Source of the DNA: Candidatus Pyrohabitans jungbluthii
GTDB lineage: Archaea; Hydrothermarchaeota; Hydrothermarchaeia; Hydrothermarchaeales; BMS3B
Direction: 5' to 3'
DNA length: 64,000 nt
Assembly: GCA_002010065.2 (NCBI GenBank)
Contig: MTMD02000002.1
Location: 512,001-576,000 of the forward strand
The notes under the pieces were generated by a model, which had not been told where the DNA came from, ran no database searches, and worked only from the letters and a program-made list of their open reading frames with translations. Each line of letters begins with the position of its first letter. Within the stretch, counting starts at the first letter, position 1. Shown here piece by piece: positions 23,692-42,470 of the stretch. The position numbers and the translations under genes were made by a program.

Positions 23692-24693
23692 ATGTCGTTG
23701 TCATGGAATAAAGGCATTGTACTGATAGTGTTGCTTCTAAGCATCTCAGTGGTTTATGCAGCTGACCAGTTCTATTCGATTAAAGGTGGCCCCACTTACA
23801 ACGGCTCAAGCGATGGCTGGGTTATGGTTTGGGATGCAGGAGCAACTCAGGACAGCTACCTTAGAGTTGCCTTCTCTGTTAACCGCCCAGCCTACAAGCT
23901 TGGAAAGACTGTTTCGGTAATGATACGTACCGACGGCTATTACTCCAGAGACTCTGGCTGGTGGTATACAGAGGGTGGCGCAAGTGTTGATTATGTAAAG
24001 TTTTACTATCCGAACGGCACACTTATAAAGCAGCTCAGCGGTACCACTGGCAGCGACGGCGTGTGGAAGGACGACACCGCCTTAATGCTCACAAAAGACA
24101 TGCCCATGGGCACCTACAAGGTGGAGGCGAGCGTAACTAAAGGCACGACAACTGTGGGGGATGATGCTGGAGGCTACATGACCATCTACTTCGACGTCGG
24201 AGGAGAGCTTCACCTCACGGTTAATACAAATGCAAGCACAGATAGCAGAGGAAGGTTTGTAGCAGCAAACGGCTCGGTGGTTAGAATTTATGGGCAAATC
24301 CTTCAGCCCAATGGCGACGTGTTCAGCAGCACCACAGTACCTTCGGGAAGTGCTGTTACTGTAAGGCTTGGAATAGTTAAGCCCGACGAGAGCTATACAT
24401 ACATGACCCAAACAACAACCACTGGCGACTATTCCTTTGATGTTCTCCTTGACCAAGTGGGACATTACTTCTTTGTTGTTACCGCCAACTGCACAGTAGG
24501 CGGTCCGATTACTGGCATCAAGTACGTTGTATGTGAGGGAAGAAATCAGACAAATATTATTTCAACGGGAGAGTGGCCAGCGGCGGGGGGCTCCTTCGCA
24601 TCCTCTCCTCTCGCAATTAGCGTGGCGGTGATTCTTGCAATAATATCAGCTTACTACCCAGGGGGTATGCTGTATAGGCGGCTCAGGAAGTAA
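23692..24693 (+). CDS. Secreted Ig/MG2-like protein with C-terminal membrane anchor
   Basis: Signal peptide; RPAYKLGKTVSV...YPNG...GTTGSDG...GTYKVEA; C-terminal TM plus RRLRK. Confidence 0.75.
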   Translation: MSLSWNKGIVLIVLLLSISVVYAADQFYSIKGGPTYNGSSDGWVMVWDAGATQDSYLRVAFSVNRPAYKLGKTVSVMIRTDGYYSRDSGWWYTEGGASVDYVKFYYPNGTLIKQLSGTTGSDGVWKDDTALMLTKDMPMGTYKVEASVTKGTTTVGDDAGGYMTIYFDVGGELHLTVNTNASTDSRGRFVAANGSVVRIYGQILQPNGDVFSSTTVPSGSAVTVRLGIVKPDESYTYMTQTTTTGDYSFDVLLDQVGHYFFVVTANCTVGGPITGIKYVVCEGRNQTNIISTGEWPAAGGSFASSPLAISVAVILAIISAYYPGGMLYRRLRK

Positions 24694-24715
24694 TCACGGT
24701 AAGTGCAGAGGCAGC

Positions 24716-27700
24716 ATGAGAAGAGGGCTGGTGTTAGTCTTTACTTTAGCTGTGCTTTTCTCAGTTTCGCCTGTGCATGCCAAGGTTACAAACTGGAACG
24801 TCAACATAGAGTTCAGAGATACCGCCAACAATATAATAACAAGCATACAGCCCGGGCAGACCTTCTATGTGAACATAAGCGTCACCGCCTCCAGCGACAC
24901 CGGCGAAACCTATCCCATGGCGAAGCTGAGCATCCCCCCGGGCTTTACCATAATACCCAAAAAGATAAACGACGGCACCTACGACATTGAAGAACACAGC
25001 GTTCATTTTTACAGTCTTGAAGCAGATGGAGACTGGTATGTTACCGGCTCCAGCCTGGCAGATGGCACAAACTGGAACACAGGCTGGGTTGTTAAGGCTG
25101 ACGACTACTTAATTCCCGGGAAAAACTACACCTTCTTTATTGCGATGTATGACGAGGACACCACAGGCGGTACCAAAACGAGTTACTATGAAAACTTCCC
25201 TGCCTACTACCAAGGCTGGGGTAATAAGTTTTACAAGGATATTTACGTCCAGCCCACTATTTCCACCCTAACGGTAAGTGTGAACTCGACCACCTACGAC
25301 ATAGGTGGAGGCGTAACCGTAGAGGGCTTCAAGATAGGCGACACCGTGCTCATAAGCGGCACCACTGAACCTAACGCTAATGTAAACATTACTATTTGGA
25401 AGCCCCAGTACACCATTGGCGCAAAAATCACAACCACAGCGGATGGTAGTGGGAACTTCCAGGCAACCTACACCCTGACGGAAAACTGGGACAGGCGCGG
25501 TATATATACCGTTGAAGTGATAGCCTACAAGGCTCCCAACCTCATAGCAAGAACCAAAATAAACTTCTACGTTGGCGACAACATAGCTCAGAACGATAAA
25601 GCTTTCAGAAGCAAAAGGGTTTCCCCTCCTGACATAAGCTACTCCTGCGGCGATTGTCATACCGCCGTATTCTTCAACTACAGCGTTATGAGCCAGGCAG
25701 ACCAGATTAATCCTGGCAGTGAAGGGACACCTGATCCACATAAGGAGCATCCTTACCGCTCACCCCCAACAGAGAATTGCGACTGGATTCATTGGATTCA
25801 CGACCCTCTGCCGGAATTTAATGAAAGCAGACTGGCTTCCGGTGTGTTGTTAAAGCAGGATCGCGTTACTGCTGGAAGAAGCTACACACAGCCTGGAGAG
25901 ATTACCCACCTTGCCGAGTGGGAGAGGGATGATGACATACCTCCACCCTATGCGATTACCGAGTTTTATGCAGAGCCATTAAATTATCCTGACTCCGCTG
26001 GTGAGTGGACTGCTTGCAGTATGTGCCACCTGAATGTTCGTGGCTACTCTTACGTGAGGACTGACAACACTCTCACTTGCACACCAAAGGGCAACAACCG
26101 TCCGGGATGTCACGTTGTTGAGAGGGAGGGAACCCATAAATACACACCTTCCTGCCAGAACTGCCACGTTCCTTCGGGAAAGAGCTTGAAGGATGTTGAG
26201 CTTCCCAACTGCCTCAAGTGCCATGCTATTAAAAACTATTGGGAATATGGCGTAGGCACTTCCCACGCCACTGACAGTAGTGGCAGTGATATTACAGATG
26301 CTGTAATGGCAGATGATGAGAATGTTTTTAGATTGGATACTTCGGGGCAGTATGTTGAGGCAAATATCTCCGCTCCCTTCAGAGAGAAAGCCCTTCAGGT
26401 TATAAAAATCGGAGTGAACTGGAACGGCACAACCAGCGGAGGTGCGGGCAATCAGCAGATAGAGCTTCAGTACCTCGACGTAAATGGTATATGGCAGTCC
26501 GCAGGGTTATCTCCTGCTCGGACTACGCCTTTTGAAGCGACAGATTACTTCATTATTAAGAACACCTCAGACCCGAGCTTAACAAATCCCGCCGGGCTGA
26601 ATGAGCACGGTGAGATTGTGGTAAGGGTTGTATATCCAACCGATGGCAATTCTAAAGAATTTGCTGATATTGATTATATCTTCATGGACATTCTAGCGGA
26701 TGATTCAATTGCCCTCGAAGGTGCCCACGAGGGTGTGGAGTGCCTCAACTGCCACGGGCACAGCCACAACGCAACCAGGCAAATCTACTGTACCTCCTGC
26801 AAGGGTCAGAAGCTTGCCCCCGAGGGTGAGCACGTGTGGCAGAAGAAGAACGCCACCGGCGGGGATATAATAGAGGGGGTGAACACCTCCCTGTGGTGTA
26901 CAGAGTGCCACGGTGGATATGGGCACACCTCAATAACAAATACGCCTTCCTGCGCCAAGTGCCACAATCCGAGCGTTGCCAACAAGTCTTGGAAGCGGTA
27001 TTCTTATACCGAAATTCCGCCGTGGGGTCTGGACAACATCCATGGCAGAGCTAACCTCTTCTGCGAGGATTGTCACATTGATAATCACAACGTCACATTG
27101 CCCAGCTGCAACGCAGAGGGCTGCCATATCGCCAATATTTCTGATACTGTACCCAGCTCGGGCTACTACGCCACCTGGGACGACTCCACAAAGACTCACG
27201 ACCCGAGCCACAGCAGCGGTACAAACTATACCATAGAGATGCACGCATACAATGCCAGTGGTTGGTATGGCAAGAGTGACAAGAAATGGGGTGCCACCTG
27301 CGATGAGTGTCACAACAACCATACAAGTGAGGTTTACCTCAAGCTTGAGAACAAGTGGATAAATGCGAGCACCGATTCTATGGTACACTCCACCAACAGA
27401 AGTATAGCCGAGATGGTGCCCTACAATGAGAGTTATGCTTCCTACGATGCAAAGTGGTGTGTTGACTGCCATCAGGATAGAGGAAGCCACTATGGGTGGA
27501 GTTGTCTTGACTGCCACTATCGTGATGACGGCGACGACACGTTTAAGGAGCCTGCCTTCCACAGCGCTAAAATCGCAAAGTCTGGTGGGGGCGGCCCCAA
27601 CTGTATAGGTTGCCACGACATTGGAGGCAGCGCCACCCACATTATAAACGTCACCGCCTTAAATCTGAGCGTTCATGGCGGAATAGTTACCAATTCAAGT

Positions 27701-30700
27701 ACTTATTCCACGTATGGCTTGAATCAGAGCTGCTACGCGTGCCACACCAGTGATGGTCAGGCACCTGATGACATGGGCGACCGTTACAACAACCCGTGGA
27801 CATGTGTTGACTGCCATACCAGCGGAGGTGCAAAGGCTGGTGCCTATGGTGCGCCCATAGTTAGTGAGCACTATCGCAGTGGAGATAATATAACTGCTGT
27901 TGGTTATGCCAGCACCGACGTACTCAGCTGCCTTGCATGCCACCAGAATGCCACTGATGCCAGCCTGAGGGACTTCATGCTCATCCCTGCCAACGATCCA
28001 AATGAGGGTAGCTCCGTCTCAGATGTTGATGGAGATGGGATTAAGGGTGGCAACATAAGCTTCTACCACTATGGTAAGGATAACAGCTGGTTGAGAACAG
28101 GGCCTGGTGGCAGCACTTCCTGTCAGTTCTGCCATCAGAACAACAGCATCTTCACTGCAGTAATGAGCGATTCCACTCACAACAGCATGCAGAACCACAC
28201 TGACAATGCTGTTGTAGACTGTACTGACTGTCATGGTACTGGCTGGATACACAATGCATCGCTCACCAAGCCTGTGCTTACTGCGAGTGATGACAGCGTA
28301 TGTACAAGCTGTCATACAACCAAGAGCCGGCACAACAGCGCTGGCAACCGCGCCAATGCTGAGGAGGTAAAGTGTATTGCCTGCCACACTGGTGATGTAA
28401 ACACCTACCAGCCTAGAGACATCCACGGCATAAAGATTATTAACTCCTCGGGTGGTTATGAACAGTGGGGCACCTCTTCTCCAGCGACCTGTGTCACCTG
28501 CCACCAGAGCAACCTTGGTGGCAAATTTGCGAACGCTTCGCAGGTACCTTCACCGCTCAATCACAGCCAGGATCCCATTGCTGGGCAGAAGTGGAACAAG
28601 ACTTCGCAGGCTTACTGGACTCCTGGCGATGATCAGGAGGCGTGCAACTACTGCCATGGCGATTCCAGGCACGAGGCTAATGCACTGGGCAATGCCTCAG
28701 CTATAGAGGATTCGCTGAGCAGGAACGCCACTGACCTCAGCACCACCAGCTGGTGTGCTGGTTGCCACTACTCGGAGGCGAGCAACTACAACGGCACTGC
28801 CTTCTCGCCTCAGCCGCCCGAGATAATCACCTGGGGTGGCACAGCCAATGATGGCACAAGCTTCCAGAACCACAGCGGCTACCTCTCCAGTGGATACGAC
28901 GATAGTGTGTGCACCTCCTGCCACAGTGGTAGCACCTCTTCGACTGCGCTGTATCCGCACAACGTTTACGAGGGCGTCGCAGGCGGTCCCAACTGCATAA
29001 GCTGCCACGACATAGGTCAGAGTGGTGCTCCCAAGCACATCAACTTCACCGCTGTAAATTCAAGCGAGAATATTCACTTTAATCTGAACAATGCCACTCC
29101 TGTGAGTTATGATCCTGTTAACAGGATTTGCCTTGGCTGTCACAGCAGCGATGGAAGCGAGCCTGCGAGTGGACATCCCACAGGCTACAAGTCGCCTTAT
29201 ACCTGCGTAGACTGCCACGTTAACTCGCCACCTGCCCATGCAAGCAATGCTCCGCAGGTAAGGGAGCACTACCGCAATGGCAGCGAGGTGAAGGCGGTTA
29301 CGGACGCAGCCAGCGACGTGCTCAGCTGCATTGCGTGCCACCAGAACTCTACCACAGCAAATACAATGCTAATACCAGCCAACGATCCTGACTATGGCAG
29401 CTTTGATGCCGATGGAGACGGAGTTAGTGGCGGCAACATAAGCGCCTCTCACTATGGCAAGAAGCGCACTGATATTGTCAGTGGAGGCGTAACAAGCTGC
29501 GCCTACTGCCACCAGAACGCTGGAAGCGAGTTCGCTGGTGTGTTCAACAAGAGCGGTAATGCAGACATGCTTAACCATACTGACAACACCGTGGTAGACT
29601 GCACAGACAGTAACTGCCACTCCTCTGGCAGAATTCACGACTCTGCCTTAACCAAGCCGCCTACGATGTACAACAACACCTACTGTACCACATGCCACAC
29701 TGGCAAGGAGCTTCACGGCAGTAATACCATAACAGGAATAAGTCCACAGGGCAGCGGAGTCAACTGCTATGATTGCCATGCCGATGAAAACAAAGAGGTT
29801 GCTCCCATTCACGGCATAAGCTACATAAACACCACAGGCGGCTTCACAGTTTGGGATAACTCCAGTGCAGCCACCTGCAAGACCTGCCACCAGAGCAGCG
29901 TTGCTGATGCTGCTATAGGAGCAACTGCGCCCAAGATACGCTCACCGCTTCACCACAGCGATGATCCCATAGCCGGATGGAAGTGGAACGCCTCTGGGTA
30001 CTGGAATGACACCAACAGTGTTGAGTACGATGACTCCTGCTACTTCTGCCATGGCAGCGTGAAGCACAGCGCCAACGCCATGGGCTTAATAGTTACCAAC
30101 AACGTGACTGGGAGCAACTCCTACAACACCTCCAGCTTCGACACAAGCTACTGGTGCGCCAACTGCCACTACAGCAACAGCGCTGACAACTATGCAGGCG
30201 ACCTCTTCACGCCTAAAGTGGTTGAGATAACCTCCTGGCCAGTGAACTCAAGCGATGGGCAGCAGGAGTTTGTGAACCATACCAGTTACATCTCATCAGG
30301 TCATACTGATAGCGTTTGTAAGGGCTGCCACGGTGGCTTTGCACCTGAAACCACGGGCGACTTTGCCCACGACGTGGCTATAGGTGCAGCCGGCGGCCCC
30401 AACTGCATAAGCTGCCACGATATTGGCGCCAACCCAAGTGTAACCCACGTGATTAATGTCTCGGCCCTGCAGCAGGGTGTGCACGGCAATATTGATACCC
30501 CAGCGGATGACGCTACATATGGCTTGAATCAGAGCTGCTACGCGTGTCACACCAGTAATGGTCAGGCACCTCCAGAAGGAGATATGGGCGACCGGGCCTT
30601 TAACCCGTGGACATGTGTTGACTGCCATACCAGCGGAGGTGCAAAGGCTGGTGCCTATGGTGCGCCCATAGTTAGTGAGCACTATCGCAGTGGAGATAAT

Positions 30701-33700
30701 ATAACTGCTGTTGGTTATGCCAGCACCGACGTACTCAGCTGCCTTGCATGCCACCAGAATGCCACTGATGCCAGCCTGAGGGACTTCATGCTCATCCCTG
30801 CCAACGATCCAAATGAGGGTAGCTCCGTCTCAGATGTTGATGGAGATGGGATTAAGGGTGGCAACATAAGCTTCTACCACTATGGTAAGGATAACAGCTG
30901 GTTGAGAACAGGGCCTGGTGGCAGCACTTCCTGTCAGTTCTGCCATCAGAACAACAGCATCTTCACTGCAGTAATGAGCGATTCCACTCACAACAGCATG
31001 CAGAACCACACTGACAATGCTGTTGTAGACTGTACTGACTGTCATGGTACTGGCTGGATACACAATGCATCGCTCACCAAGCCTGTGCTTACTGCGAGTG
31101 ATGACAGCGTATGTACAAGCTGTCATACAACCAAGAGCCGGCACAACAGCGCTGGCAACCGCGCCAATGCTGAGGAGGTAAAGTGTATTGCCTGCCACAC
31201 TGGTGATGTAAACACCTACCAGCCTAGAGACATCCACGGCATAAAGATTATTAACTCCTCGGGTGGTTATGAACAGTGGGGCACCTCTTCTCCAGCGACC
31301 TGTGTCACCTGCCACCAGAGCAACCTTGGTGGCAAATTTGCGAACGCTTCGCAGGTACCTTCACCGCTCAATCACAGCCAGGATCCCATTGCTGGGCAGA
31401 AGTGGAACAAGACTTCGCAGGCTTACTGGACTCCTGGCGATGATCAGGAGGCGTGCAACTACTGCCATGGCGATTCCAGGCACGAGGCTAATGCACTGGG
31501 CAATGCCTCAGCTATAGAGGATTCGCTGAGCAGGAACGCCACTGACCTCAGCACCACCAGCTGGTGTGCTGGTTGCCACTACTCGGAGGCGAGCAACTAC
31601 AACGGCACTGCCTTCTCGCCTCAGCCGCCCGAGATAATCACCTGGGGTGGCACAGCCAATGATGGTACCACCTTCAAGAATCACAGTGAATTTGGCATTT
31701 CGCCGTCATCATATACTGACGATAAGTGCACCTCTTGCCACAGTGGTAGCACTTCTTCGACTGCGCTGTATCCGCACAACGTTTACGAGGGCGTCGCAGG
31801 CGGTCCCGAATGTACCACCTGTCACTATATAGGCAGCGCCAATCCCAACATCAACGTCACCGCCTTCTCTCTGGGTGTGCACGGCAAGATAGTTACCAAC
31901 TCCAGCACCTTCTCCACCTATGGCTACAACCAGAGCTGCTGGGCGTGCCATGCCACAGATGGTAGTGTAACTCCCAGTGGTCATCCTGATAGGCAGAAGA
32001 ACCCGTGGACCTGCGTTGACTGCCACACCTCTGGTGGAGCCAAGGCGGGTGCTTATGGCGCTCCAATAGTGAGCGAGCACTACCGCAATGGCAGCGAGGT
32101 GAAGGCGGTTACGGACGCAGCCAGTGACGTGCTCAGCTGCATTGCGTGCCACCAGAACTCTACCACAGCAAATACCATGATAATCCCGGCAAACGACCCG
32201 GATGAGGGCAGCGCTGACATGATTGATGTTGACGGCGACGGCACCAAGGGTGGTAACCTAAGCTTCTACCACTATGGTAAGAATCGTACTGATTTAATCA
32301 CAGGAGGAATAACCAGCTGTGAATACTGCCACGTGGGCGGTGGCAATGAGTTTGCCTCGCTCTTCAACAATACTCTAAATACCAACATAACCAACCACAC
32401 CGATAACAACAACCCCTACTGCACAGGCTGCCACGGCAGCGGAAGGATTCACGACGCAGCCATCTTCAAGACCAGCGTTACCAACAGCACCTTCTGCGTA
32501 AGCTGCCACGGCAGCGATGCTGTGCCAAAGCAAGCTCACGCAACAGACACCAGCGAGAACACTCTCGGTAGCGGTGTGCCCTGCGCCGACTGTCACACCT
32601 CAGTGCCCAGAGATATCCATGCAGCGAGGTACATCCTTGCAAATGGCAGCTACTCTGCGCCCTACGATAACTCTACCTATGCGGTTGCCAACTGCGTAGA
32701 TTGCCACCAGCCTGGTGGGGTGCCCTCAGCCAACTCCAAGTTCTCCAGTGCACCCATAATTTCCAAGCCCATGAACCACAGCGATAGCAACCTCTCTGGT
32801 CAGAAGTGGGGCAACTACTGGGCTCATGGCGATGATCAGAGCACGTGCAACTTCTGTCACGGTGACACCAGACACAACTCCTCTGGCCTGGGCAAGGCGA
32901 GAGTGGTTATGGGAAGCAACTCCCTCAACCAGAGCCTTGACGCTGGCATATGGTGTGCAAATTGCCACTACAAGGTTTCGTCCGAGTACAACGAAACTAA
33001 GCTCCTTAACACCTTTGGTGTGCTTCCGCCCGAAATTACCAACTACTCCACGGGTGAGATAAACTTCAGCGATGGTTCAACTTCGCAGAACCATTCTGAG
33101 CTCAACCTGGATAGCAACTATAAGGATTCTCAGTGCGACGGCTGCCACGGCTATAACAACCCGATCAAGACCTCTGGTAGCTTTGTGCACCAGGTTGCGG
33201 TTGGTAACGTGGGTGCCGAGCCCGGCGGTCCTGACTGCGTGAGCTGCCACAAGCCAGGTGGCTATGCAGAAACCTATAACCACTCCATAGATACTGATGT
33301 TATGGAGAGCAGCAGCTACATCCACCGCTACCTCAACAAGGACGCCACCGCAAGCACTTCGCTGAGCACAACCCTCAACAAAGCCTGCTGGGCATGTCAC
33401 GATCCCAAGGGTCAGGGCGTGGAGCCGGGTGCTAAGGAGCACTACAACACCACCACAACGGCGAAGCGCTGCACCGACTGCCACCTGAGCGGTGCCTTTG
33501 GCGCTCCCGTGGTGAGCGAGCACTTCTGGAATGCTCAGGAGATAAAGCTAAATAAGACAACTGCATGTGAGGACTGCCATGCAAGAGCTGAGATGGTGCT
33601 CAACCACACCGACCCCTCACCAAGTATAGCCGAGAATGCCACAATGAACGCTTCCCACTACGGCACGAAGCGCAACGATGTCAAGGCAAAGACAGGCAAC

Positions 33701-34600
33701 GGCTACTGTGGCTACTGTCACCAGCAGCAGCATAGCGACTCAACCGCAGCGTTTAACGACCTCTTCAACGATCCGGCGAAGCAGCGCATACCCAGGCACA
33801 GCAACGGCACGAGGCACAACTACGATACCTGCGTGAGGTGTCACAACGCTTACAACAGGAATCTACATGATATAACAGTTATAAAGAACAATATAAACAC
33901 CATAAATTGCTATCTGTGCCATTCTGTAACAGAGGGATGGGCTTATGTCCATGGCTTTGAAAAGAGTAAAACGTTAGACTGCCAGGATTGCCACGTGGGC
34001 GACACAGGTACAATCCATCCGATATCCTACATACGCAGCGACGGTACCTATAAGAACTACTCTGTAACCACGCCGAAGAAGGCTGATTGCGTGGACTGCC
34101 ACCTTGGTTCAAATTCCGCCATAGATACTGCGATGCAGACCTACTATGGTAAGGTTCCGCCAAGATTTGCAACCTTCAAGCACAACCTCTCCACCACCTA
34201 CTGGAGCACAACAAAGCAGGCATGTCTGTACTGCCACAACCCCGTGCACTGGGAGGCGGTTGGTGTTTCCCGCATTGCTGCAGCCAAGGCTGGAACGAAG
34301 TATCGGCAGATAAGGGATGACCACAAGCCTCTCAACAACACCCTCTGGAACACCACATGGTGTGCCTCTTGCCACTACAGCGGCGATAGTGATTACGACG
34401 ACGTACAATACGTCTTAACCAAATCCAGCCTCTACGGGCGCTCACCTCTGCCACCTGTCATAAGCACACCTTCAAGCCACTATGGCGCAGATATTACTGT
34501 AAACTACACCGACGCTAAGTGTGGCGAAAGTACCTGCCATGGTGGAAGCTACACCCCGAGCGACGGGCTTACCCCATTCATGCACAACATAACCAACTGA
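24716..34600 (+). CDS. Giant secreted multiheme c-type cytochrome (3294 aa)
   Basis: Signal peptide, N-terminal Ig-like region, about 69 CxxCH plus 3 CX4CH, 1 CX9CH and 1 CxxCK (hand count); five tandem 12-heme modules; many N-x-S/T sequons. Confidence 0.95.
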   Translation: MRRGLVLVFTLAVLFSVSPVHAKVTNWNVNIEFRDTANNIITSIQPGQTFYVNISVTASSDTGETYPMAKLSIPPGFTIIPKKINDGTYDIEEHSVHFYSLEADGDWYVTGSSLADGTNWNTGWVVKADDYLIPGKNYTFFIAMYDEDTTGGTKTSYYENFPAYYQGWGNKFYKDIYVQPTISTLTVSVNSTTYDIGGGVTVEGFKIGDTVLISGTTEPNANVNITIWKPQYTIGAKITTTADGSGNFQATYTLTENWDRRGIYTVEVIAYKAPNLIARTKINFYVGDNIAQNDKAFRSKRVSPPDISYSCGDCHTAVFFNYSVMSQADQINPGSEGTPDPHKEHPYRSPPTENCDWIHWIHDPLPEFNESRLASGVLLKQDRVTAGRSYTQPGEITHLAEWERDDDIPPPYAITEFYAEPLNYPDSAGEWTACSMCHLNVRGYSYVRTDNTLTCTPKGNNRPGCHVVEREGTHKYTPSCQNCHVPSGKSLKDVELPNCLKCHAIKNYWEYGVGTSHATDSSGSDITDAVMADDENVFRLDTSGQYVEANISAPFREKALQVIKIGVNWNGTTSGGAGNQQIELQYLDVNGIWQSAGLSPARTTPFEATDYFIIKNTSDPSLTNPAGLNEHGEIVVRVVYPTDGNSKEFADIDYIFMDILADDSIALEGAHEGVECLNCHGHSHNATRQIYCTSCKGQKLAPEGEHVWQKKNATGGDIIEGVNTSLWCTECHGGYGHTSITNTPSCAKCHNPSVANKSWKRYSYTEIPPWGLDNIHGRANLFCEDCHIDNHNVTLPSCNAEGCHIANISDTVPSSGYYATWDDSTKTHDPSHSSGTNYTIEMHAYNASGWYGKSDKKWGATCDECHNNHTSEVYLKLENKWINASTDSMVHSTNRSIAEMVPYNESYASYDAKWCVDCHQDRGSHYGWSCLDCHYRDDGDDTFKEPAFHSAKIAKSGGGGPNCIGCHDIGGSATHIINVTALNLSVHGGIVTNSSTYSTYGLNQSCYACHTSDGQAPDDMGDRYNNPWTCVDCHTSGGAKAGAYGAPIVSEHYRSGDNITAVGYASTDVLSCLACHQNATDASLRDFMLIPANDPNEGSSVSDVDGDGIKGGNISFYHYGKDNSWLRTGPGGSTSCQFCHQNNSIFTAVMSDSTHNSMQNHTDNAVVDCTDCHGTGWIHNASLTKPVLTASDDSVCTSCHTTKSRHNSAGNRANAEEVKCIACHTGDVNTYQPRDIHGIKIINSSGGYEQWGTSSPATCVTCHQSNLGGKFANASQVPSPLNHSQDPIAGQKWNKTSQAYWTPGDDQEACNYCHGDSRHEANALGNASAIEDSLSRNATDLSTTSWCAGCHYSEASNYNGTAFSPQPPEIITWGGTANDGTSFQNHSGYLSSGYDDSVCTSCHSGSTSSTALYPHNVYEGVAGGPNCISCHDIGQSGAPKHINFTAVNSSENIHFNLNNATPVSYDPVNRICLGCHSSDGSEPASGHPTGYKSPYTCVDCHVNSPPAHASNAPQVREHYRNGSEVKAVTDAASDVLSCIACHQNSTTANTMLIPANDPDYGSFDADGDGVSGGNISASHYGKKRTDIVSGGVTSCAYCHQNAGSEFAGVFNKSGNADMLNHTDNTVVDCTDSNCHSSGRIHDSALTKPPTMYNNTYCTTCHTGKELHGSNTITGISPQGSGVNCYDCHADENKEVAPIHGISYINTTGGFTVWDNSSAATCKTCHQSSVADAAIGATAPKIRSPLHHSDDPIAGWKWNASGYWNDTNSVEYDDSCYFCHGSVKHSANAMGLIVTNNVTGSNSYNTSSFDTSYWCANCHYSNSADNYAGDLFTPKVVEITSWPVNSSDGQQEFVNHTSYISSGHTDSVCKGCHGGFAPETTGDFAHDVAIGAAGGPNCISCHDIGANPSVTHVINVSALQQGVHGNIDTPADDATYGLNQSCYACHTSNGQAPPEGDMGDRAFNPWTCVDCHTSGGAKAGAYGAPIVSEHYRSGDNITAVGYASTDVLSCLACHQNATDASLRDFMLIPANDPNEGSSVSDVDGDGIKGGNISFYHYGKDNSWLRTGPGGSTSCQFCHQNNSIFTAVMSDSTHNSMQNHTDNAVVDCTDCHGTGWIHNASLTKPVLTASDDSVCTSCHTTKSRHNSAGNRANAEEVKCIACHTGDVNTYQPRDIHGIKIINSSGGYEQWGTSSPATCVTCHQSNLGGKFANASQVPSPLNHSQDPIAGQKWNKTSQAYWTPGDDQEACNYCHGDSRHEANALGNASAIEDSLSRNATDLSTTSWCAGCHYSEASNYNGTAFSPQPPEIITWGGTANDGTTFKNHSEFGISPSSYTDDKCTSCHSGSTSSTALYPHNVYEGVAGGPECTTCHYIGSANPNINVTAFSLGVHGKIVTNSSTFSTYGYNQSCWACHATDGSVTPSGHPDRQKNPWTCVDCHTSGGAKAGAYGAPIVSEHYRNGSEVKAVTDAASDVLSCIACHQNSTTANTMIIPANDPDEGSADMIDVDGDGTKGGNLSFYHYGKNRTDLITGGITSCEYCHVGGGNEFASLFNNTLNTNITNHTDNNNPYCTGCHGSGRIHDAAIFKTSVTNSTFCVSCHGSDAVPKQAHATDTSENTLGSGVPCADCHTSVPRDIHAARYILANGSYSAPYDNSTYAVANCVDCHQPGGVPSANSKFSSAPIISKPMNHSDSNLSGQKWGNYWAHGDDQSTCNFCHGDTRHNSSGLGKARVVMGSNSLNQSLDAGIWCANCHYKVSSEYNETKLLNTFGVLPPEITNYSTGEINFSDGSTSQNHSELNLDSNYKDSQCDGCHGYNNPIKTSGSFVHQVAVGNVGAEPGGPDCVSCHKPGGYAETYNHSIDTDVMESSSYIHRYLNKDATASTSLSTTLNKACWACHDPKGQGVEPGAKEHYNTTTTAKRCTDCHLSGAFGAPVVSEHFWNAQEIKLNKTTACEDCHARAEMVLNHTDPSPSIAENATMNASHYGTKRNDVKAKTGNGYCGYCHQQQHSDSTAAFNDLFNDPAKQRIPRHSNGTRHNYDTCVRCHNAYNRNLHDITVIKNNINTINCYLCHSVTEGWAYVHGFEKSKTLDCQDCHVGDTGTIHPISYIRSDGTYKNYSVTTPKKADCVDCHLGSNSAIDTAMQTYYGKVPPRFATFKHNLSTTYWSTTKQACLYCHNPVHWEAVGVSRIAAAKAGTKYRQIRDDHKPLNNTLWNTTWCASCHYSGDSDYDDVQYVLTKSSLYGRSPLPPVISTPSSHYGADITVNYTDAKCGESTCHGGSYTPSDGLTPFMHNITN
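27791..28854 (+). repeat. ~1064-bp direct repeat, copy 1
   Basis: Appears identical to 30602-31665 (offset 2811); alternative-frame ORFs 28019-28504 and 30830-31315 translate identically. Confidence 0.92.
30602..31665 (+). repeat. ~1064-bp direct repeat, copy 2
   Basis: See copy 1. Confidence 0.92.
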
Positions 34601-34666
34601 TGAGCAAAAAAGTTAAATATAAAAAAATCTAAAAAATGTTAAAAAACATTAAATATATAGGGTGAA

Positions 34667-35215
34667 GTGATGAGCGGCCTGCGTATGATGGTGCTGACGC
34701 TGGGATTGATGGCTTTGCTAACCTTAGTCATGCCCACAGCGATGGCTAAGTTCAGCGGCCAGCACCAGTTCGTGAATGGAAGTGAGGTGGATTGCGCAAA
34801 GTGCCATATTGATGTTTATGATGAGCTTACCGCTAACCCCGATGCGCCTCATGCAAACCGGAGCTGTAAGTTCTGCCATACGTGGGGTAATGAGAGTGCC
34901 CCCGGATTCTGGAAGGACCCATTGGGTTTGGATCTTAAATTTCATGCGGCTGCTACTATAGCTTGCGACAATGAATACTGCCATGGCAAGGCAGGAGCTA
35001 ACGTCACCGCTGAAATAACCAACACCTCCGCGGCGCATACGCCCTTCTACGAGAGCATGCACAACGAGCCATACCTCCAGGGCGGCAATGAAGCCTGCGT
35101 TGGCTGCCACACTCAGGTGAAGGTGAACGTCACCATATCTGAAGCCAAGGGCTTCAACATCACTGCAACGAGCAACGGTACCGACTGGAACATAACCTTC
35201 AGCATAGTACCTTAA
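34667..35215 (+). CDS. Secreted tetraheme cytochrome c, archaeal nanowire (ECN)-like subunit 1
   Basis: Signal ...MPTAMA|KFSGQHQF; CAKCH, CKFCH, CDNEYCH, NEACVGCHT; C-terminal beta-strands. Confidence 0.85.
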   Translation: MMSGLRMMVLTLGLMALLTLVMPTAMAKFSGQHQFVNGSEVDCAKCHIDVYDELTANPDAPHANRSCKFCHTWGNESAPGFWKDPLGLDLKFHAAATIACDNEYCHGKAGANVTAEITNTSAAHTPFYESMHNEPYLQGGNEACVGCHTQVKVNVTISEAKGFNITATSNGTDWNITFSIVP

Positions 35216-35284
35216 ATAAAATTTAAAGGTAATCGAAAAATATTTAAATAAGTATAAACAAAAACAAAATGGAGGTGAAAACAC

Positions 35285-35827
35285 ATGAGGAGAGTACTAC
35301 TCTTGGTGGGTGTGCTGGCACTGATGATGCTGGTGATGCCCACAGCGATGGCAAAATTCCAGAACCAGCACAGCTTCCTGAACGGCAGCAGCGTAGACTG
35401 TACCAAGTGCCACTCGGACGTCAACACGGAACTTCAGGGAAGTGACGTGAGTGTGCACAAAAATCTTGACTGCAAGGACTGCCACATAGCTCTGGGTCCG
35501 CAGGCAGCGGGCAAGGGATACCACGCTGCCGAGCTGGTGGAGTGTCTCTACTGCCACGATACCAACGCTGGTCAGAATACCACCTGGACTAATCGTCCGA
35601 TACCATCCAACAACGTTACCGCCGAGATAACCCAGACCACGGCAGCGCATAAGCCCTTCTATGAGGCGATGCTCACAGAGACCACGCTCCAGGGTGCCAA
35701 CGAAGCTTGTATAGGCTGCCACACCAATGTGCAGGTGGACGTTGCCATAACCGAACAGACCGGCTACAACATTAGCGCCACCTACGACGGTACCGGCTGG
35801 ACTGTGAGCCTGACAGGCACATTCTAA
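35285..35827 (+). CDS. Secreted tetraheme cytochrome c, ECN-like subunit 2
   Basis: GGAGGTGA RBS; ...MPTAMA|KFQNQHSF; CTKCH, CKDCH, CLYCH, NEACIGCHT; paralog of the upstream gene. Confidence 0.87.
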   Translation: MRRVLLLVGVLALMMLVMPTAMAKFQNQHSFLNGSSVDCTKCHSDVNTELQGSDVSVHKNLDCKDCHIALGPQAAGKGYHAAELVECLYCHDTNAGQNTTWTNRPIPSNNVTAEITQTTAAHKPFYEAMLTETTLQGANEACIGCHTNVQVDVAITEQTGYNISATYDGTGWTVSLTGTF

Positions 35828-35829
35828 GC

Positions 35830-35896: not shown

Positions 35897-36631
35897 TTGA
35901 TGAATGCCCTTGATATAGTTGTGCTGTTTTACCTTTTGACAATGAGTTTCACCTTCCTAGTGTTCCTGCTCAGTGATAAGTTGTCCCTCCTATTCAAACG
36001 TCTTGTTACTTATGGAAAGCAGCGCAGCTTCCAGAGAAAGGTGGAGAAAAGGTATAGGGAGATGGTGGGTCTGGATAGAATACGCAAACCCACCTTTTCA
36101 GGTGCGATGCTGATAATAATCTTCTACCTCATCTTTGGCGTTTTTGCCATGAACAAGTACCTCTACTTCGCCGCCGTTGCGTCGTACAGCATGTACCCCA
36201 CCCTTGATAAGGGAGACCTTATACTTGTGCAGAGCTTTCACCTTGAGCCCGAAGTTGGAGACATTATCCTCTTCAGCGGTATAGAGGTTGGCGATGAGGA
36301 GAGGCGCGAATTCGTGAGCCACCGGGTTAAGAAAATAGAGGGTGAGAAAATATATACGGGCGGAGATGCTAGAGGTGGTCTTGACCCGTGGGTGGTGCAC
36401 CGGGAGCAGATAGTGGGCAAGGTGGTAACTCTCTTCGGTCAGCCTGTAAAAATCCCCAAGATTGGCGAGTATCTTATTATGGAAGAGGGCAAATCCATGA
36501 GAAACATCCTCCTGCTCCAGTACTTCCTCAATATGAGCAGAATTTACGGTTTTCTGATATTTATCACCGCAATGCTGCTCTACCTCTACCTCACTGCCCG
36601 TGAAGCGAGAAGGCGGGAGGTTAGTATATGA
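35897..36631 (+). CDS. Signal peptidase I (S26, ER/SipW-type Ser-His)
   Basis: VASYSMYPTLDKGDLILV, VGDIILF, VSHRV, TGGDA...DPW, IVGKV. Confidence 0.88.
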   Translation: MMNALDIVVLFYLLTMSFTFLVFLLSDKLSLLFKRLVTYGKQRSFQRKVEKRYREMVGLDRIRKPTFSGAMLIIIFYLIFGVFAMNKYLYFAAVASYSMYPTLDKGDLILVQSFHLEPEVGDIILFSGIEVGDEERREFVSHRVKKIEGEKIYTGGDARGGLDPWVVHREQIVGKVVTLFGQPVKIPKIGEYLIMEEGKSMRNILLLQYFLNMSRIYGFLIFITAMLLYLYLTAREARRREVSI

Positions 36632-37776
36632 AAACAAAGCACAAGGTCTTGCTTCTTGGTATCATCGCCATAGGCTACTACATGTTCACACTCTCCGTAG
36701 CAGAATTTAGAGGTCAGCACTCCTTCATAGCGGGTGTCCAGGTAAACTGCACCTCCTGCCATGAAAACGCTGCCTCCAACCTCTCCGCCTCTGCCTACCA
36801 CTCCAGCAAGAGCTGCACCTTCTGCCACAGCGTAACCTTTGTAAACAACTCAGCCCACGGTGCCACCACCACCATCGCCTGTACAGACTCGCTCTGCCAT
36901 GCCAACGTCACCGCTAACCTAACCTCCCCCTACGAGGCGCACAGAGACCTGTACCTTAAAGCGGAGGACTACTTCACCGGCACCTACACCTATGGTCCCA
37001 ACGAAGCGTGCATCTTCTGCCATACTAAGTATCGCAAAGAGATAACATTTTACCATCCAGAGTACATCAACTTTACCATTACAACCAACCACACATCCAA
37101 CTCCTCCTGCGACAGTGGCACCGTTAAGACCTTCAACATCACCCGCTTTGTGGTTGGACCACAGGCAACCAGACCACCCGAACTGTTTACCGACACCGGG
37201 AATCTCCACTACTTTATAAACGTTACTCAGATAAGCTGTTCCGCCAGCCCGTGCCATAAACCGATTCAAGACGCTTTAACTTATAGTATACAATATAGAG
37301 CTCACATAAGCGATGTGGAGGACGAAGGTACAGACGTGGGTCACGCTACTTCAAGCTACGACGACTCCTACTGCAAGGACTGCCACTACAACACAGCCTA
37401 TGCCTTTTTATACCCAGGCTTTGTGCACGCCGACGAGGTGCATGCTGCAGAGAAAATAAAATGCACCTCCTGCCACAGCGCTAATTTGAGTGCTCCTTTT
37501 CCCGCGTCGAATCAGGACAACAACGGCACCGAGCACGGGTGCTCCACTCTATACTATGACATAGAGAAGATTCCAATACACTACCAGGCAGATGTTTGTA
37601 TTGCCTGCCACTACCGGTATGTTCACCTGGATACAAATACTGACACATCAGCCTGCGATGCTTGCCATGTCAACAGCAACAATACCGCCTTTAACCTAAC
37701 AGTAGTTTACTATTCGGAATATTCATCAGACCCAGGTTATGTCACCATATCCGTGGTCAATCTGTCAGGCCTATAA
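36628..37776 (+). CDS. Secreted ~9-heme cytochrome with a tandem ECN-like domain pair
   Basis: A|EFRGQHSF N-terminus like the tetrahemes; 7 CxxCH and 2 CX4CH; NEACIFCHT; repeated H-(G/A)-A-x(3)-I-x-C. Confidence 0.85.
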   Translation: MKTKHKVLLLGIIAIGYYMFTLSVAEFRGQHSFIAGVQVNCTSCHENAASNLSASAYHSSKSCTFCHSVTFVNNSAHGATTTIACTDSLCHANVTANLTSPYEAHRDLYLKAEDYFTGTYTYGPNEACIFCHTKYRKEITFYHPEYINFTITTNHTSNSSCDSGTVKTFNITRFVVGPQATRPPELFTDTGNLHYFINVTQISCSASPCHKPIQDALTYSIQYRAHISDVEDEGTDVGHATSSYDDSYCKDCHYNTAYAFLYPGFVHADEVHAAEKIKCTSCHSANLSAPFPASNQDNNGTEHGCSTLYYDIEKIPIHYQADVCIACHYRYVHLDTNTDTSACDACHVNSNNTAFNLTVVYYSEYSSDPGYVTISVVNLSGL

Positions 37777-39656: not shown

Positions 39657-40322
39657 ATGAAGGGCGTAATACTTACGGTGGTGATTATGTTAATGATACT
39701 GGCAGCATCTCTGTATGCTCAGGAGGTAGTGGAGATAAGGGAGGAGCAAGCGAAGCTGCTGAAGAGATACACCGCCTTCTCAACCCACTCCGGCTGGATA
39801 TGCAATAAGTGTCATCTTCAGATAATGGGAGAACAGAGGTTCAGGGAGGTGACAGGTGGGTGTTTGTGCCATCGCAGTCCCTATGGTAAACCCGCCAAAG
39901 TTACAATAGAGAATGTCCAGAAATATGCCCACGACGCAAACCACTGCATGCTGTGCCATGCGGGGACAAAGAATGTGAATACTGATGTCTATCACAAAAT
40001 TGTACACTACAACGTATCCTGCAGCAAATGTCACGATATAAGGAAAAAAAATGATGAGTTCGATATAATAAAGCCGAAAAGTACATATTGCAGAGGATGC
40101 CATTCAGAGGATGTGCATGTGGTGCATGGTCTTAGACTGGACAGGCTCTGCGAATACTGCCATGGAAAAGAATTTGCAAGAAAGTATGTGTCCGTGGGGC
40201 TTGAACCACCTGAGGTGAAGTTAGAGAAGAATCAAACCCTGGTAAAACCAAAGGAGGAAGAGAGAGGTGGTATACCATCCATCAGCGAACTCATATTCAA
40301 GATTTTGGACATTATTTTCTGA
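39657..40322 (+). CDS. Multiheme cytochrome c (5 CxxCH plus one CxCH)
   Basis: N-terminal hydrophobic segment; CNKCH, CLCH, CMLCH, CSKCH, CRGCH, CEYCH; amphipathic tail SISELIFKILDIIF. Confidence 0.85.
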   Translation: MKGVILTVVIMLMILAASLYAQEVVEIREEQAKLLKRYTAFSTHSGWICNKCHLQIMGEQRFREVTGGCLCHRSPYGKPAKVTIENVQKYAHDANHCMLCHAGTKNVNTDVYHKIVHYNVSCSKCHDIRKKNDEFDIIKPKSTYCRGCHSEDVHVVHGLRLDRLCEYCHGKEFARKYVSVGLEPPEVKLEKNQTLVKPKEEERGGIPSISELIFKILDIIF

Positions 40323-40764
40323 GGTAGCCGCTATTCTCGCGATAATTGCCTTGGTGGCAGGATGCACTCTACCGAAGCAGGAGGAGGTGATTGTGTATAA
40401 GGTTATCGCAGAGATAAATGAGAGTCATCAGATAACCAATGTAACCTGCTACCAGGAGAAACTACCGATAAACAAGGTAAAAATAACCACTGGTGAAGGG
40501 GAACCACCTATGGTTGGAATGAAGGTTTTTGTTGTGGACAATGTCAACAAGAAAATTCACGGCTCCAACTGGGCGCTTATTGCCTATGAAGGACCTGGCA
40601 AATATGAAGCTACATTGTATGTAGAAGACGGATACATTCCGAGTGAGGTAGATGTGGTAGGCTGTTATGTAAAATTGTTGGATAGGTATCTTAAGCCGGT
40701 TTCAATGAGTGGAGGGGAAGCAGAGATAGTATATCCAAGAGAGAAACTGGAGGAGAGCAAATGA
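40267..40764 (+). CDS. Putative lipoprotein
   Basis: Lipobox-like IIALVAGC; start uncertain. Confidence 0.6.
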   Translation: MVYHPSANSYSRFWTLFSEVAAILAIIALVAGCTLPKQEEVIVYKVIAEINESHQITNVTCYQEKLPINKVKITTGEGEPPMVGMKVFVVDNVNKKIHGSNWALIAYEGPGKYEATLYVEDGYIPSEVDVVGCYVKLLDRYLKPVSMSGGEAEIVYPREKLEESK

Positions 40765-42470
40765 GGTATGCTCTTGCTTTCGTGGTTTTCCTAATATTAA
40801 TCTCAGGTGTTGCTCATGCTCAGTCGGAAATAGTACTCGTTGACAGTGTCTTAGGCTTGGGAAATTATGAAGCAAGATCTACCAACATCTTCAAGCCGGG
40901 GGATACCGTAAAAGTCTACATGGAAGCGGACGACGTAAACCACCGCGGCCTTGTGGCGGTGAATTTTGTGGTGTTCCTGTACAACACCTATAGTGGTCAT
41001 TATGAGCTTTGGGATTTTCAGAGGCTCAGGGTGAGGTACCTCAACTACAGGGAAAAGGATACATATGCGGTTTACGAATTCAAAATACCTGAAGACTTCA
41101 ATCCCGGGGAATATACAATAAAGATTGCAGCCTACGACGTTGCAAATGAAGAGAATTTAAACGAGGTTTTCGCACAAATGCAAAACTTTTTTGAACCTGA
41201 TTTCTCAAAACCCAACACCTATGTGAATGCTCCGCAGGGTGAGGATGCAGCGGACGCGTACTATGGAAACCTGGGATTAATTAAATCAGAGGACTGGAGA
41301 ACGCTGAAGTTCATAAAAACTCTCAGCTTTAAGGTGGTTACTTCCCCGCGGGAGGTGGAGGAGCTTGCCAGCAAGGTCAATTTTACAAATAAGATAAACA
41401 TAACTGCCACCTATCTGGGGTTGTTAAACGGCTCCCATCAAAACGGCATTTTTAAACAGGGAGGAGAAATGGCAATAAATGTCACAGCCAGAGGGATAAA
41501 CCACCAGGGGCTTGTGGCACTTGACTTTATTTTTACAATAGTGGATAAAGACCTCTTGCCTTTGGCGAAGCCTGAGACTTACAGGGTACGCTTCAAGACA
41601 TATAAGGAAAGGGACTTCACCTTTACCTACAACTTCACAGATAAAAAACTTGAACCCGGTGAATACTACCTTGATATCAAAATTTATGACAGAGCAAATC
41701 CAGATTACATTGAAGATGTGCTGAATGCATTGAAGTTCACGTCTGATTTCGACACCTCAAAGATAACCACATACCTTAACATGCCCGAAGGGGTTAATGT
41801 GAATGACAACACCTACTCATCTATTGGCGCTCTAAAGGCGATGGACTACACCACCCTTGTATTTTCCTCTAAGATACCATTTAAAGTGATTAAAGAGGAA
41901 GAGGTTCCCATAGAAGTCCTGGAGGAGCTGAAGCCAGAGATTGAGGTGCTTGAGCTTGAGACAAGCAAATATCTGCTAAAGCCAAACGAACCCTTTAGGG
42001 TGATCCTTACTGTCAAGAATCACGGAGGCAGCGGGAGGGCTTCCATAACCGTTACTCTGTCAGGCGAGACTCGTGAATATCGCCTGCCAAAAGACTTTTT
42101 ATTTGAGGCGAATGAGACCAGAAAGGTATCTTTTGAGATAAATCTGCCCATGGAGGAAGGAGTCTGGCGAGTAGGCGTTGTGAACACCACAATCATTCGC
42201 CCTGTTTTCGTCTTTGCAGGTGAGCTGGGCAAGAAGGAGGAGGTGCCTGAGGAGGAACTGGAAGAGCGGCTCAAGCCGCAAAAGAGGGAGAGGAACCCCT
42301 ACCCAATGGCCATCCTTGCAGCAGTTCTGTTGCCTCTCTTAATTCTCAAGCTGGTTATTAAGGGCTTGAAGATACCGGTGAGTGAATGGACCGGATTGGG
42401 TCTAAACTTTACAATAGCTGTTGTTCTTATCCTCTTTGCCGCTTATGCCGTCTATTATTTCATTTTATGA
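40761..42470 (+). CDS. Secreted, C-terminally anchored protein with duplicated Ig-like domain
   Basis: Signal peptide; repeats IFKPGD..VNHRGLVAVNF..PGEY..YD / IFKQGG..INHQGLVALDF..PGEY..YD; CARDB-like domain; two C-terminal TM. Confidence 0.78.
   Translation: MRYALAFVVFLILISGVAHAQSEIVLVDSVLGLGNYEARSTNIFKPGDTVKVYMEADDVNHRGLVAVNFVVFLYNTYSGHYELWDFQRLRVRYLNYREKDTYAVYEFKIPEDFNPGEYTIKIAAYDVANEENLNEVFAQMQNFFEPDFSKPNTYVNAPQGEDAADAYYGNLGLIKSEDWRTLKFIKTLSFKVVTSPREVEELASKVNFTNKINITATYLGLLNGSHQNGIFKQGGEMAINVTARGINHQGLVALDFIFTIVDKDLLPLAKPETYRVRFKTYKERDFTFTYNFTDKKLEPGEYYLDIKIYDRANPDYIEDVLNALKFTSDFDTSKITTYLNMPEGVNVNDNTYSSIGALKAMDYTTLVFSSKIPFKVIKEEEVPIEVLEELKPEIEVLELETSKYLLKPNEPFRVILTVKNHGGSGRASITVTLSGETREYRLPKDFLFEANETRKVSFEINLPMEEGVWRVGVVNTTIIRPVFVFAGELGKKEEVPEEELEERLKPQKRERNPYPMAILAAVLLPLLILKLVIKGLKIPVSEWTGLGLNFTIAVVLILFAAYAVYYFIL

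Follow-up and report, generated by a model that had tools for sequence, protein, structure and literature searches.

Giant multiheme cytochromes (MHCs) are the prime candidates for carrying respiratory electrons out of the cell in methane-oxidising and metal-respiring archaea, and to our knowledge no such archaeal protein has been purified or had its structure solved. Passages of PMC9012536 and PMC7327174 propose that they serve as extracellular electron conduits. The main text of Leu et al. 2020 (PMC7327174), in the passages dealing with this protein, calls a 113-heme cytochrome from a metagenome-assembled genome (MAG) of manganese-reducing 'Ca. Methanoperedens' the largest identified. For anaerobic methanotrophic archaea (ANME), passages of Chadwick et al. 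2022 (PMC9012536) describe MHC types A, B and C, which carry 20-86 motifs, are proposed to be extracellular or S-layer electron conduits, and are defined by S-layer, transmembrane (TM), peptidase-M6-like or pectin-lyase domains. The same passages mention ANME MHC clusters that hold a signal peptidase together with a polytopic membrane protein, and place similarly large archaeal cytochromes otherwise only in Geoglobus and Ferroglobus. A polymeric counterpart is AvECN (8e5g), the extracellular cytochrome nanowire (ECN) of Archaeoglobus veneficus (excerpts of PMC12954529 and PMC11176372). Here we analyse a gene for a giant MHC in a member of the Hydrothermarchaeales, Candidatus Pyrohabitans jungbluthii. 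It lies in a stretch of 64,000 nucleotides (assembly GCA_002010065.2, contig MTMD02000002.1, positions 512,001 to 576,000), which we call the window and in which all coordinates below are counted.

A regex count of the protein finds 69 CXXCH and 3 CX4CH motifs, together 72, and additionally one CXXCK, among 149 Cys and 170 His residues. Of the 72 heme motifs, 60 sit in five tandem 12-heme modules. The first-pass annotation, made from the sequence, had flagged 27590..34600 as a five-module cytochrome; this region does lie inside a single open reading frame (ORF), the start of which is found 2.9 kb further upstream, at 24716. That the product is a multiheme c-type cytochrome is supported by Pfam cytochrome families matching at E 1e-31 to 7e-63, namely Cytochrome_C7 (E 7e-63, 9 stretches), MtrC/MtrF domain II/IV (E 2e-54, 14 stretches) and also c3_2. 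The protein carries an export signal, its N-terminus being a typical signal peptide, MRRGLVLVFTLAVLFSVSPVHA, followed by KV, and the genome (1.99 Mb in 15 contigs, 99.95% complete, 51% GC) encodes a cytochrome c maturation (Ccm) system, with CcmC/CcmF-type and CcmE genes above their cut-offs. A hydropathy scan found no hydrophobic segment besides the signal peptide, and in particular no C-terminal anchor, as had been noted initially. The suggestion of heavy N-glycosylation likewise appears plausible: the protein contains 106 sequons compared to 46.7 +/- 6.0 in 1000 shuffles, a density of 3.2 per 100 aa that places it in the top 0.8% of 913 long frames (genome median 0.25), and two STT3/AglB genes are present in the genome. 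This excess in combination with the STT3/AglB genes makes N-glycosylation a reasonable inference.

The motif GGPxC occurs exactly five times (aa 959, 1423, 1893, 2362 and 2837), at spacings of 1392, 1410, 1407 and 1425 nt, and marks the module starts at precisely the nucleotides first proposed (27590, 28982, 30392, 31799 and 33224). Counting by regex returned exactly 12 heme motifs for every module when the CX4CH variants are included, and the periodicity holds on profile comparison, since a profile of the five modules recovers each of them at 543-807 bits (E 1e-163 to 1e-243), far beyond chance, and nothing elsewhere in the genome. Modules 1 and 3 are 94% identical, the remaining pairs among modules 1-4 share 46-51%, and module 5 shares 30-32% with the rest. 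Part of the similarity between modules 1 and 3 consists of a 1064-nt tract without a single mismatch, the two copies of which lie 2811 nt apart, while their flanks and the intervening modules have diverged. The recurring landmarks that had been listed for all modules were recovered in part: AP.V.EH, HYG and WCA.CHY stand at matching positions in all five, and D.DGDG in modules 1-4 only, as claimed, while NHT (at a shared position) and KW are limited to modules 1-4, and NHS to modules 1, 3 and 4. At the junctions, motif 12 is separated from motif 1 of the next module by 23-29 aa, without a linker, compared to a range of 19-59 aa between motifs inside modules; this gap contains an invariant His457. 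The stretch that precedes module 1 ends in the same ..F-H-x(9-12)-GGPxC pattern.

Is such a module peculiar to this gene? Its homologs argue otherwise, and it is a conserved unit of giant archaeal MHCs, occurring in Methanoperedens, ANME-2, Methanocellales, Archaeoglobi and Hydrothermarchaeales. A word-indexed protein search, restricted to proteins of 1811-5765 aa, gave 108 matches, the best of which, leaving aside the near-identical protein P0002, share only 33-38% identity with the giant cytochrome; those with a name were mostly from Methanoperedens/ANME-2, with single ones from Hydrothermarchaeales, Methanocellales, Argoarchaeum, Methanogaster and an 'uncultured archaeon'. An exhaustive profile search of 1.84 billion cluster representatives yielded 439 matches at E <= 1e-3, 177 of them at E <= 1e-30, and a scan in which each species was represented by one genome found 69 loci, again mostly in Methanoperedens and furthermore in ANME-2, Methanocellales, two Archaeoglobi MAGs and one Chloroflexota-binned contig. 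The latter (locus L024, match 1941-3017) comes from a contig titled as a Chloroflexota bacterium MAG and is the only bacterial-labelled module locus, with 39% identity over residues 1-380; as the contig measures 8.5 kb, a binning error or a transfer may be behind it. We define the family of archaeal 12-heme-module giant cytochromes by the profiles built in the present analysis, as proteins with at least one full module of ~450 aa and 12 ordered motifs; the protein described here contains five. Exactly 12 motifs are found in 64 of 69 distinct full-length public modules, and 13 in the other five.

In an alignment of 73 modules, all 12 motifs are invariant, as are eight His residues outside of them (H29, H94, H160, H203, H221, H279, H325 and H457). 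H256, H361 and H428 are conserved in at least 90% of the rows, M126 in 84% and H62 in 79%, so that 12 non-motif His and one Met, conserved in 79-100% of modules, are available as distal ligands for 12 hemes. With about one conserved distal His or Met per heme, six-coordinate electron-transfer hemes would be expected instead of catalytic sites, and the conservation thus points to electron transfer rather than catalysis. Moreover, the N-terminal half of the module aligns colinearly with its C-terminal half, heme 1 with heme 7 through to heme 6 with heme 12 (hhalign probability 97.7%, E 2.4e-12, 164 columns), and the two halves have the AP-x-[VI] and NHS/NHT contexts in common. From this colinearity it can be deduced that the module is 2 x 6 hemes, the product of an old duplication of a hexaheme unit; that some homologs carry arrays of the N-terminal half only (e.g. 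P0020) agrees with such an origin. In 25 of 58 aligned modules, including module 2, the sixth heme motif is CX4CH instead of CXXCH, a recurrent variant at a fixed position. The DxDGDG element, for which a role as Ca2+ loop had been suggested, is present in only six of the 73 modules, from the window's genus and one other; it is lineage-specific, and the idea of a Ca2+ loop as a family feature was therefore rejected. The module is not described in the main-text passages of Leu et al. 2020 (PMC7327174), and full-text searches of the literature, including portions of PMC9012536, PMC7327174 and PMC10874420 but excluding supplements (Leu 2020 Data Set S1F, Chadwick S13 Fig) and Baquero et al. 2023, where the repeat or the AvECN neighbourhood may already be depicted, returned no description of the 12-heme module, of its hexaheme origin or of Hydrothermarchaeota giant cytochromes.

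The number of modules varies within the family. Counting copies that cover at least 90% of the profile as full modules, we found none in 122 of 232 retrieved homologs, one in 72, two in 24, three in 7, four in 6, and six in a single protein, P0003, which also has the only other uninterrupted five-module run. Two of the four other genomes of the window's genus contain the module, in genes that are complete ORFs within their contigs (1590 aa with 35 motifs and 1737 aa with 40 motifs) and that are syntenic with the giant gene, each with two full modules compared to five here. In a quick maximum-likelihood tree, module 5 is placed with the congeners' last module, and modules 1-4 share a single clade with their first module (Shimodaira-Hasegawa-like approximate likelihood ratio test values of 98 and 99, respectively). 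These groupings imply that the internal module type was expanded, or lost in the congeners, while a distinct terminal module was kept. As such, the initial proposal that length is set genetically by module number receives partial support, in that the number does vary, from 0 to 6 among the homologs and between two and five within the genus.

The giant gene does not stand alone. It belongs to a series of twelve same-strand genes from 23668 to 42470, which overlap or are separated by gaps of at most 77 nt, and the order of which is kept in both congeners at 26-56% identity, with the exception of a 9-motif cytochrome that has no counterpart of its own there. The structure of AvECN (PDB 8E5G) is reportedly the work of Baquero et al. 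2023. By homology to this solved subunit and the presence of four heme motifs, the two proteins encoded at 34667-35827, and not the giant protein, are candidate AvECN-type subunits, and the four motifs are invariant in nine aligned AvECN-like homologs. In the present genome as well as in both congeners, the AvECN-like genes start ~66-68 nt after the giant gene, and all three ECN-like frames of the 2.0-Mb genome fall in this cluster. The signal peptidase gene that follows is conserved in the clusters of the congeners. The AvECN-like proteins also share the end of their signal peptide and their mature N-terminus (..P.A.A/KF.GQH.F.NGS..C..CH), and for their four hemes the nine sequences offer no more than three invariant His outside the motifs. 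The neighbouring signal peptidase may be dedicated to them. Of 45 module-bearing ORFs with a visible 3' end and no less than 700 nt of sequence beyond it, eight are followed on the same strand by an ECN-like ORF at a distance of up to 3 kb (the two congeners, a genome of the same class, and five further loci labelled Archaeoglobi, Methanoperedens, Methanosarcinales, 'Euryarchaeota archaeon' and 'uncultured archaeon'), a count that is a lower bound, as the ECN profile was derived from one genus. Given this conserved cluster with homologs of nanowire subunits, the wire may therefore not be the giant protein alone.

So what would such an array be for? Gene structure, motif counts, module homology, copy-number variation, cluster conservation and the presence of Ccm and AglB are observed. 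On this basis we favour, with a probability of about 0.62, the reading that the protein is secreted and glycosylated and forms, in a single chain, a heme relay that serves extracellular electron transfer and has a length set by module number, and that it works within a conserved conduit that includes AvECN-type subunits. The protein would be exported by Sec and loaded by the genome's Ccm system with up to 72 covalently bound hemes. As the modules follow each other without linkers, their hemes would most likely form one long relay, the length of which depends on the number of modules, and the sequence of the junctions, with gaps of 23-29 aa, is compatible with continuity of the heme chain across them. 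Most likely, the giant protein would act as one part of a conduit of several proteins, by which membrane cytochromes are connected to polymeric nanowires, minerals or partner cells; we infer where the electrons flow and to which partner, as well as the coupling to the AvECN-like proteins. In line with a role of this kind, the best profile matches of the module in the PDB are all extracellular-electron-transfer cytochromes (6qvm_A at E 4e-11, 6r2q_A at 6e-10 and MtrF, 3pmq, at 4.5e-8), all of them partial; the NCBIfam model for DmsE-family decaheme cytochromes, TIGR03508, also matches part of the module, at 52 bits compared to a cut-off of 192.

Several points must be taken into account that weigh against this reading. 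The protein lacks an anchor that would retain it at the cell. No quinol-oxidising membrane partner was identified, and the polytopic proteins of the cluster match no family in Pfam or NCBIfam. Under the genus-derived profile, 37 of the 45 module-bearing genes are without an ECN-like neighbour, which means that coupling to nanowire subunits is not a family-wide rule. An AlphaFold2 model of module 1, based on the 73-row alignment, reached a predicted local distance difference test score (pLDDT) of 81.8 and a predicted template modelling score (pTM) of 0.73, and a model of modules 1 and 2 together, from a 30-row alignment, only 45.4 and 0.31, so that it is unusable for junction geometry. Finally, the single-module model gave no match in the PDB with Foldseek at E <= 0.001, and none with VIA-align at Z >= 2 against 48,161 chains. 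It should be noted that these blanks are not evidence of a new fold, since the model is without hemes and contains little secondary structure.

Of the alternatives, the one that survives best, doubtful as we consider it to be, is that the protein by itself is a long-range wire, the 'covalent nanowire' of the first-pass annotation, which needs no polymeric partner and has its reach set by selection on module number. The five uninterrupted modules without linkers would suit this, as would the differences in module number between congeners and across the family, the recent or ongoing homogenisation of the 1064-nt tract, which marks an evolutionarily active array, and the 37 related genes that lack an ECN-like neighbour, of which many may work alone. 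On the other hand, AvECN-like genes and a signal peptidase follow closely behind the gene in three genomes, and the rod-like shape and continuous heme chain on which such a wire would depend are hypothetical. Furthermore, we estimate from data on other cytochromes that 60 hemes would span tens of nm at most, whereas the portions of literature on cytochrome filaments that we draw on report lengths of micrometres.

A more speculative possibility, which we rate as unlikely, joins the giant cytochrome to the polymer: it might serve an archaeal cytochrome nanowire as base or adaptor, or else form its tip. A covalent heme rod would then bridge membrane cytochromes and the cell surface, and AvECN-like subunits would be nucleated on it or plugged into it, e.g. 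via the invariant His that the terminal module carries 4-7 residues before its C-terminus; intragenic recombination would keep the module number variable, and this number would adjust the span to envelope thickness or mineral distance. If true, this would give genetic access to the anchoring and initiation of cytochrome nanowires, a question that excerpts of a 2025 preprint (10.1101/2025.10.22.684050) call unanswered.

Alternatively, the hemes could store charge or form a conductive coat, which would make the protein an extracellular redox capacitor or matrix cytochrome instead of a directed wire. The very high heme content, the missing anchor and the glycosylation-rich sequence are all in keeping with this. 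The genome also concentrates its motifs here: of its 16 stop-to-stop frames with at least 3 CXXCH, the giant cytochrome accounts for 69 such motifs and the next largest frame for 10. The present computations do not separate charge storage from transfer. Nevertheless, the 12 hemes keep their order and their set of ligands in distant lineages, and the operon that unites the gene with conduit-type partners is conserved. Both observations agree better with a defined relay, and we therefore hold the capacitor to be improbable.

We must also consider whether the array is real. A 1064-nt exact repeat at a distance of 2811 nt is the kind of structure that short-read assemblers mishandle, and no contig placed on the region spans the whole array, so modules 1 and 3 could in principle be a mis-assembled repeat in a gene that truly has fewer modules. 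To this end, Logan contigs of four public runs from four studies, one of which may be the source sample, were placed on the region. While contig depth does not equal copy number, the repeat is about twice as deep as the unique flanks in all four (1671 vs 711-900 in X1, 519-527 vs 209-286 in X2, 1047-1113 vs 610-667 in X3, and 779 vs 293-341 in X4). Moreover, contigs enter or leave the repeat from all four distinct flanks, and no skipping joint was seen in the four runs. Between modules 2 and 4, by which the copies are kept apart, identity is no higher than 50%. A public variant, P0002, which is 99.3% identical with 23 differences, has the same length of 3294 aa. All of this leaves an assembly artefact very improbable. 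Two of the substitutions in P0002 fall on corresponding sites in modules 1 and 3 (aa 1285/2222 and 1308/2245), which fits concerted evolution, and consensus polishing of the repeat could give the same pattern. Of its 23 differences, 16 are clustered within the first 958 aa, the majority at aa 52-84. In runs X2 and X3, single contigs exit the window's sequence at 32025 and re-enter it at 33469 with unlike sequence between; the two points lie 1444 nt apart, about one module, and may reflect an alternative module 4 in a co-occurring strain, or another organism. More generally, near-identical modules can lead to erroneous heme counts when genes of this kind are taken from short-read MAGs.

Lastly, it is scarcely credible that the chain is a polyprotein, cut at its junctions (...GVA/GG.., ..GAA/GG..), perhaps by the signal peptidase of the cluster, into 12-heme units that act separately or polymerise, since, for all the small residues at -1 and -3 ahead of GGPxC and the dedicated S26 peptidase conserved in the cluster, signal peptidase I acts beside a membrane-embedded hydrophobic segment, of which there is none at the junctions, the junction motif beyond GG..C..CH is not conserved across the family, and the peptidase is more simply explained by the AvECN-like signal peptides with their conserved ..AMA/KF.GQH end.

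Table 1. Features of the giant cytochrome gene and its cluster, in window coordinates.
Feature	Position	Strand	Remarks
Giant multiheme c-type cytochrome gene	24716..34600	+	3294 aa, 72 heme motifs
Signal peptide, residues 1-23 (...SPVHA/KV)	24716..24784	+	from sequence; sole hydrophobic segment of the protein
N-terminal region, aa 24-958, not a module copy	24785..27589	+	12 heme motifs (4 + 8)
Module 1	27590..28981	+	464 aa, 12 motifs
Module 2	28982..30391	+	470 aa, 12 motifs, heme 6 is CX4CH (CTDSNCH)
Module 3	30392..31798	+	469 aa, 12 motifs, 94% identical to module 1
Module 4	31799..33223	+	475 aa, 12 motifs
Module 5	33224..34597	+	458 aa, 12 motifs, the last CX4CH (CGESTCH); divergent 'terminal' type, orthologous to the congeners' last module
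1064-nt identical tract, copy 1	27791..28854	+	gene-conversion or recent-duplication tract
1064-nt identical tract, copy 2	30602..31665	+	no mismatch to copy 1
341-aa protein, N-terminal signal-like segment, C-terminal TM helix	23668..24693	+	ends 22 nt before the giant gene
Tetraheme cytochrome, 182 aa, AvECN homolog	34667..35215	+	PDB 8e5g_A, E 7.5e-12
Second tetraheme AvECN-like cytochrome, 180 aa	35285..35827	+	PDB 8e5g_A, E 5.6e-14, near full length
Archaeal-type signal peptidase I (S26)	35897..36631	+	Pfam PF10502; TIGR02228 at 50.6 bits, just below cut-off 51.85
382-aa cytochrome, 9 motifs, extra gene of this genome's cluster	36628..37776	+	ECN-like profile, E 4e-23
Two paralogous polytopic membrane proteins, 280 and 297 aa	37854..39608	+	no known family
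Pentaheme cytochrome with N-terminal hydrophobic segment	39657..40322	+	heme motifs, hydropathy
165-aa and 569-aa proteins closing the conserved cluster	40267..42470	+	569-aa protein: Wzt_C/MG2-like domains, C-terminal TM helices

The part of the protein upstream of the modules (Table 1) has heme-free stretches at about aa 24-305 and 521-675, for which no significant Pfam or NCBIfam family was found, the nearest being Ig-like hints at E 0.014-0.03 and SlaB at 18.7 bits (cut-off 700). Only aa 676-958 have relatives, weak ones, in large cytochromes of genomes from the same genus or order. A sixth, degenerate module in the first 958 aa was considered and rejected, as the profile scores there are ~0-2 bits and the MAFFT alignment suggesting one was forced. 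Directly upstream of the gene, the 341-aa protein gives no significant match to Pfam or NCBIfam, and the protein encoded at the corresponding place in one congener is weakly homologous to it (27.5% over 178 aa, E 2.6e-8); it is a candidate membrane anchor or partner. The pentaheme cytochrome is likewise a candidate, as membrane-proximal electron donor, and neither it nor the 9-motif cytochrome has an informative solved relative. A scan for bacterial promoters and terminators gave counts at or below shuffle expectation, the bacterial models not being applicable to archaea.

Elsewhere in the window, two large surface proteins of 1815 and 867 aa are encoded at 42964-50993 (-), with NosD/right-handed beta-helix and Ig-like domains and C-terminal TM helices, the larger one carrying 88 N-glycosylation sequons; such beta-helix domains are fused to the heme part in ANME 'type C', and here are found in separate genes that adjoin the cytochrome cluster. 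Just upstream of the cluster, at 18766-22806, lie two convergent genes for polytopic proteins (883 aa, +, and 462 aa, -), each fused to a spermine/spermidine-synthase-like domain. The segment 5746-8910 (-) encodes a heme-copper oxidase subunit I (COX1 family, 544 aa), a UbiA-family prenyltransferase and a membrane c-type cytochrome, genes of an oxygen- or nitric oxide-reductase type, with a ferrochelatase nearby at 14266-15204; the host lineage is usually described as anaerobic. Three consecutive genes at 51819-55787 (-) include a strong (429 aa) and a weak (432 aa) match to tubulin/FtsZ GTPases, and between them a 457-aa gene without a family.

How, then, does this locus relate to the systems described so far? 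The best-scoring relative of the giant cytochrome (1878 bits, 33% identity over 99% of the query part) is P0003 (loci L029/L050), which contains exactly 113 CXXCH, comes from a Methanoperedens MAG labelled MnB_21, and corresponds to the 113-heme record holder. This protein is built of the same 12-heme module, with six full copies, five of them uninterrupted, plus partial ones. It differs in its length of 5599 aa, in its S-layer (PF07752), MG2 and other domains, and in its host, which is a methanotroph, whereas mcrA was not found in the genome of the window. Many ANME proteins of types A, B and C share the heme module as well, and like some of the ANME MHC clusters, that of the giant gene includes a signal peptidase and polytopic membrane proteins. 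The giant protein itself, however, fits none of these types: PF07752/DUF1608 is absent in the Pfam scan and from the precomputed P0002 domains, and there is no C-terminal hydrophobic segment or TM helix, as types A and B would have, no Beta_helix, NosD or other pectin-lyase match, as in type C, and no peptidase-M6-like domain. It extends these large proteins beyond ANME and Archaeoglobi, to the Hydrothermarchaeales.

With AvECN, the two tetraheme cytochromes downstream share the four motifs and a conserved N-terminal F-x-GQH element. An AvECN-type wire is a polymer of small subunits, in contrast to the single covalent chain of the giant protein; the conserved adjacency of the two types of gene offers a testable idea on how single-chain and polymeric heme wires may cooperate. 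Among solved structures, MtrF (3pmq), the OmcA/MtrC family (6qyc), 6r2q_A and 6qvm_A, the last two of which we take to be MtrA and OcwA, are the best profile matches (E 4e-11 to 8e-4). All of these matches, which are to cell-surface and trans-envelope decaheme or nonaheme cytochromes from metal reducers, cover no more than a part, about 100-230 residues, and stay far below the cut-offs of the families. The architecture of MtrC/OmcA, two pentaheme and two beta-barrel domains with ten hemes, is not found in the giant protein; only the pentaheme-domain model PF22113 matches, repeatedly and partially, and the corresponding PDB matches cover ~110-150 residues.

In the 'c7-polymer' cytochromes of Geobacter, e.g. 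the dodecaheme GSU1996, one chain of repeated small multiheme units forms a linear heme array. The design principle of the giant cytochrome is the same, and it matches both Cytochrome_C7 and 3ouq_A, a 'cytochrome c family protein' (E 9e-5). Here, however, the repeat is a hexaheme unit of ~230 aa (~39 aa per heme) duplicated to 12, instead of a triheme c7, in a protein that is archaeal, glycosylation-rich and five times larger. What the locus adds is a natural series, in which one block of 12 (2 x 6) hemes occurs in two copies in the congeners and in five here, with a tract still being homogenised, in a small (2.0 Mb), non-methanotrophic genome of the Hydrothermarchaeales. Moreover, this block of ~450 aa folds with fair confidence in silico, which makes it a realistic target for expression and structure work. 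Set beside the published record holder, which is made of the same block, the giant cytochrome is real, but not a new kind of presumed extracellular electron wire.

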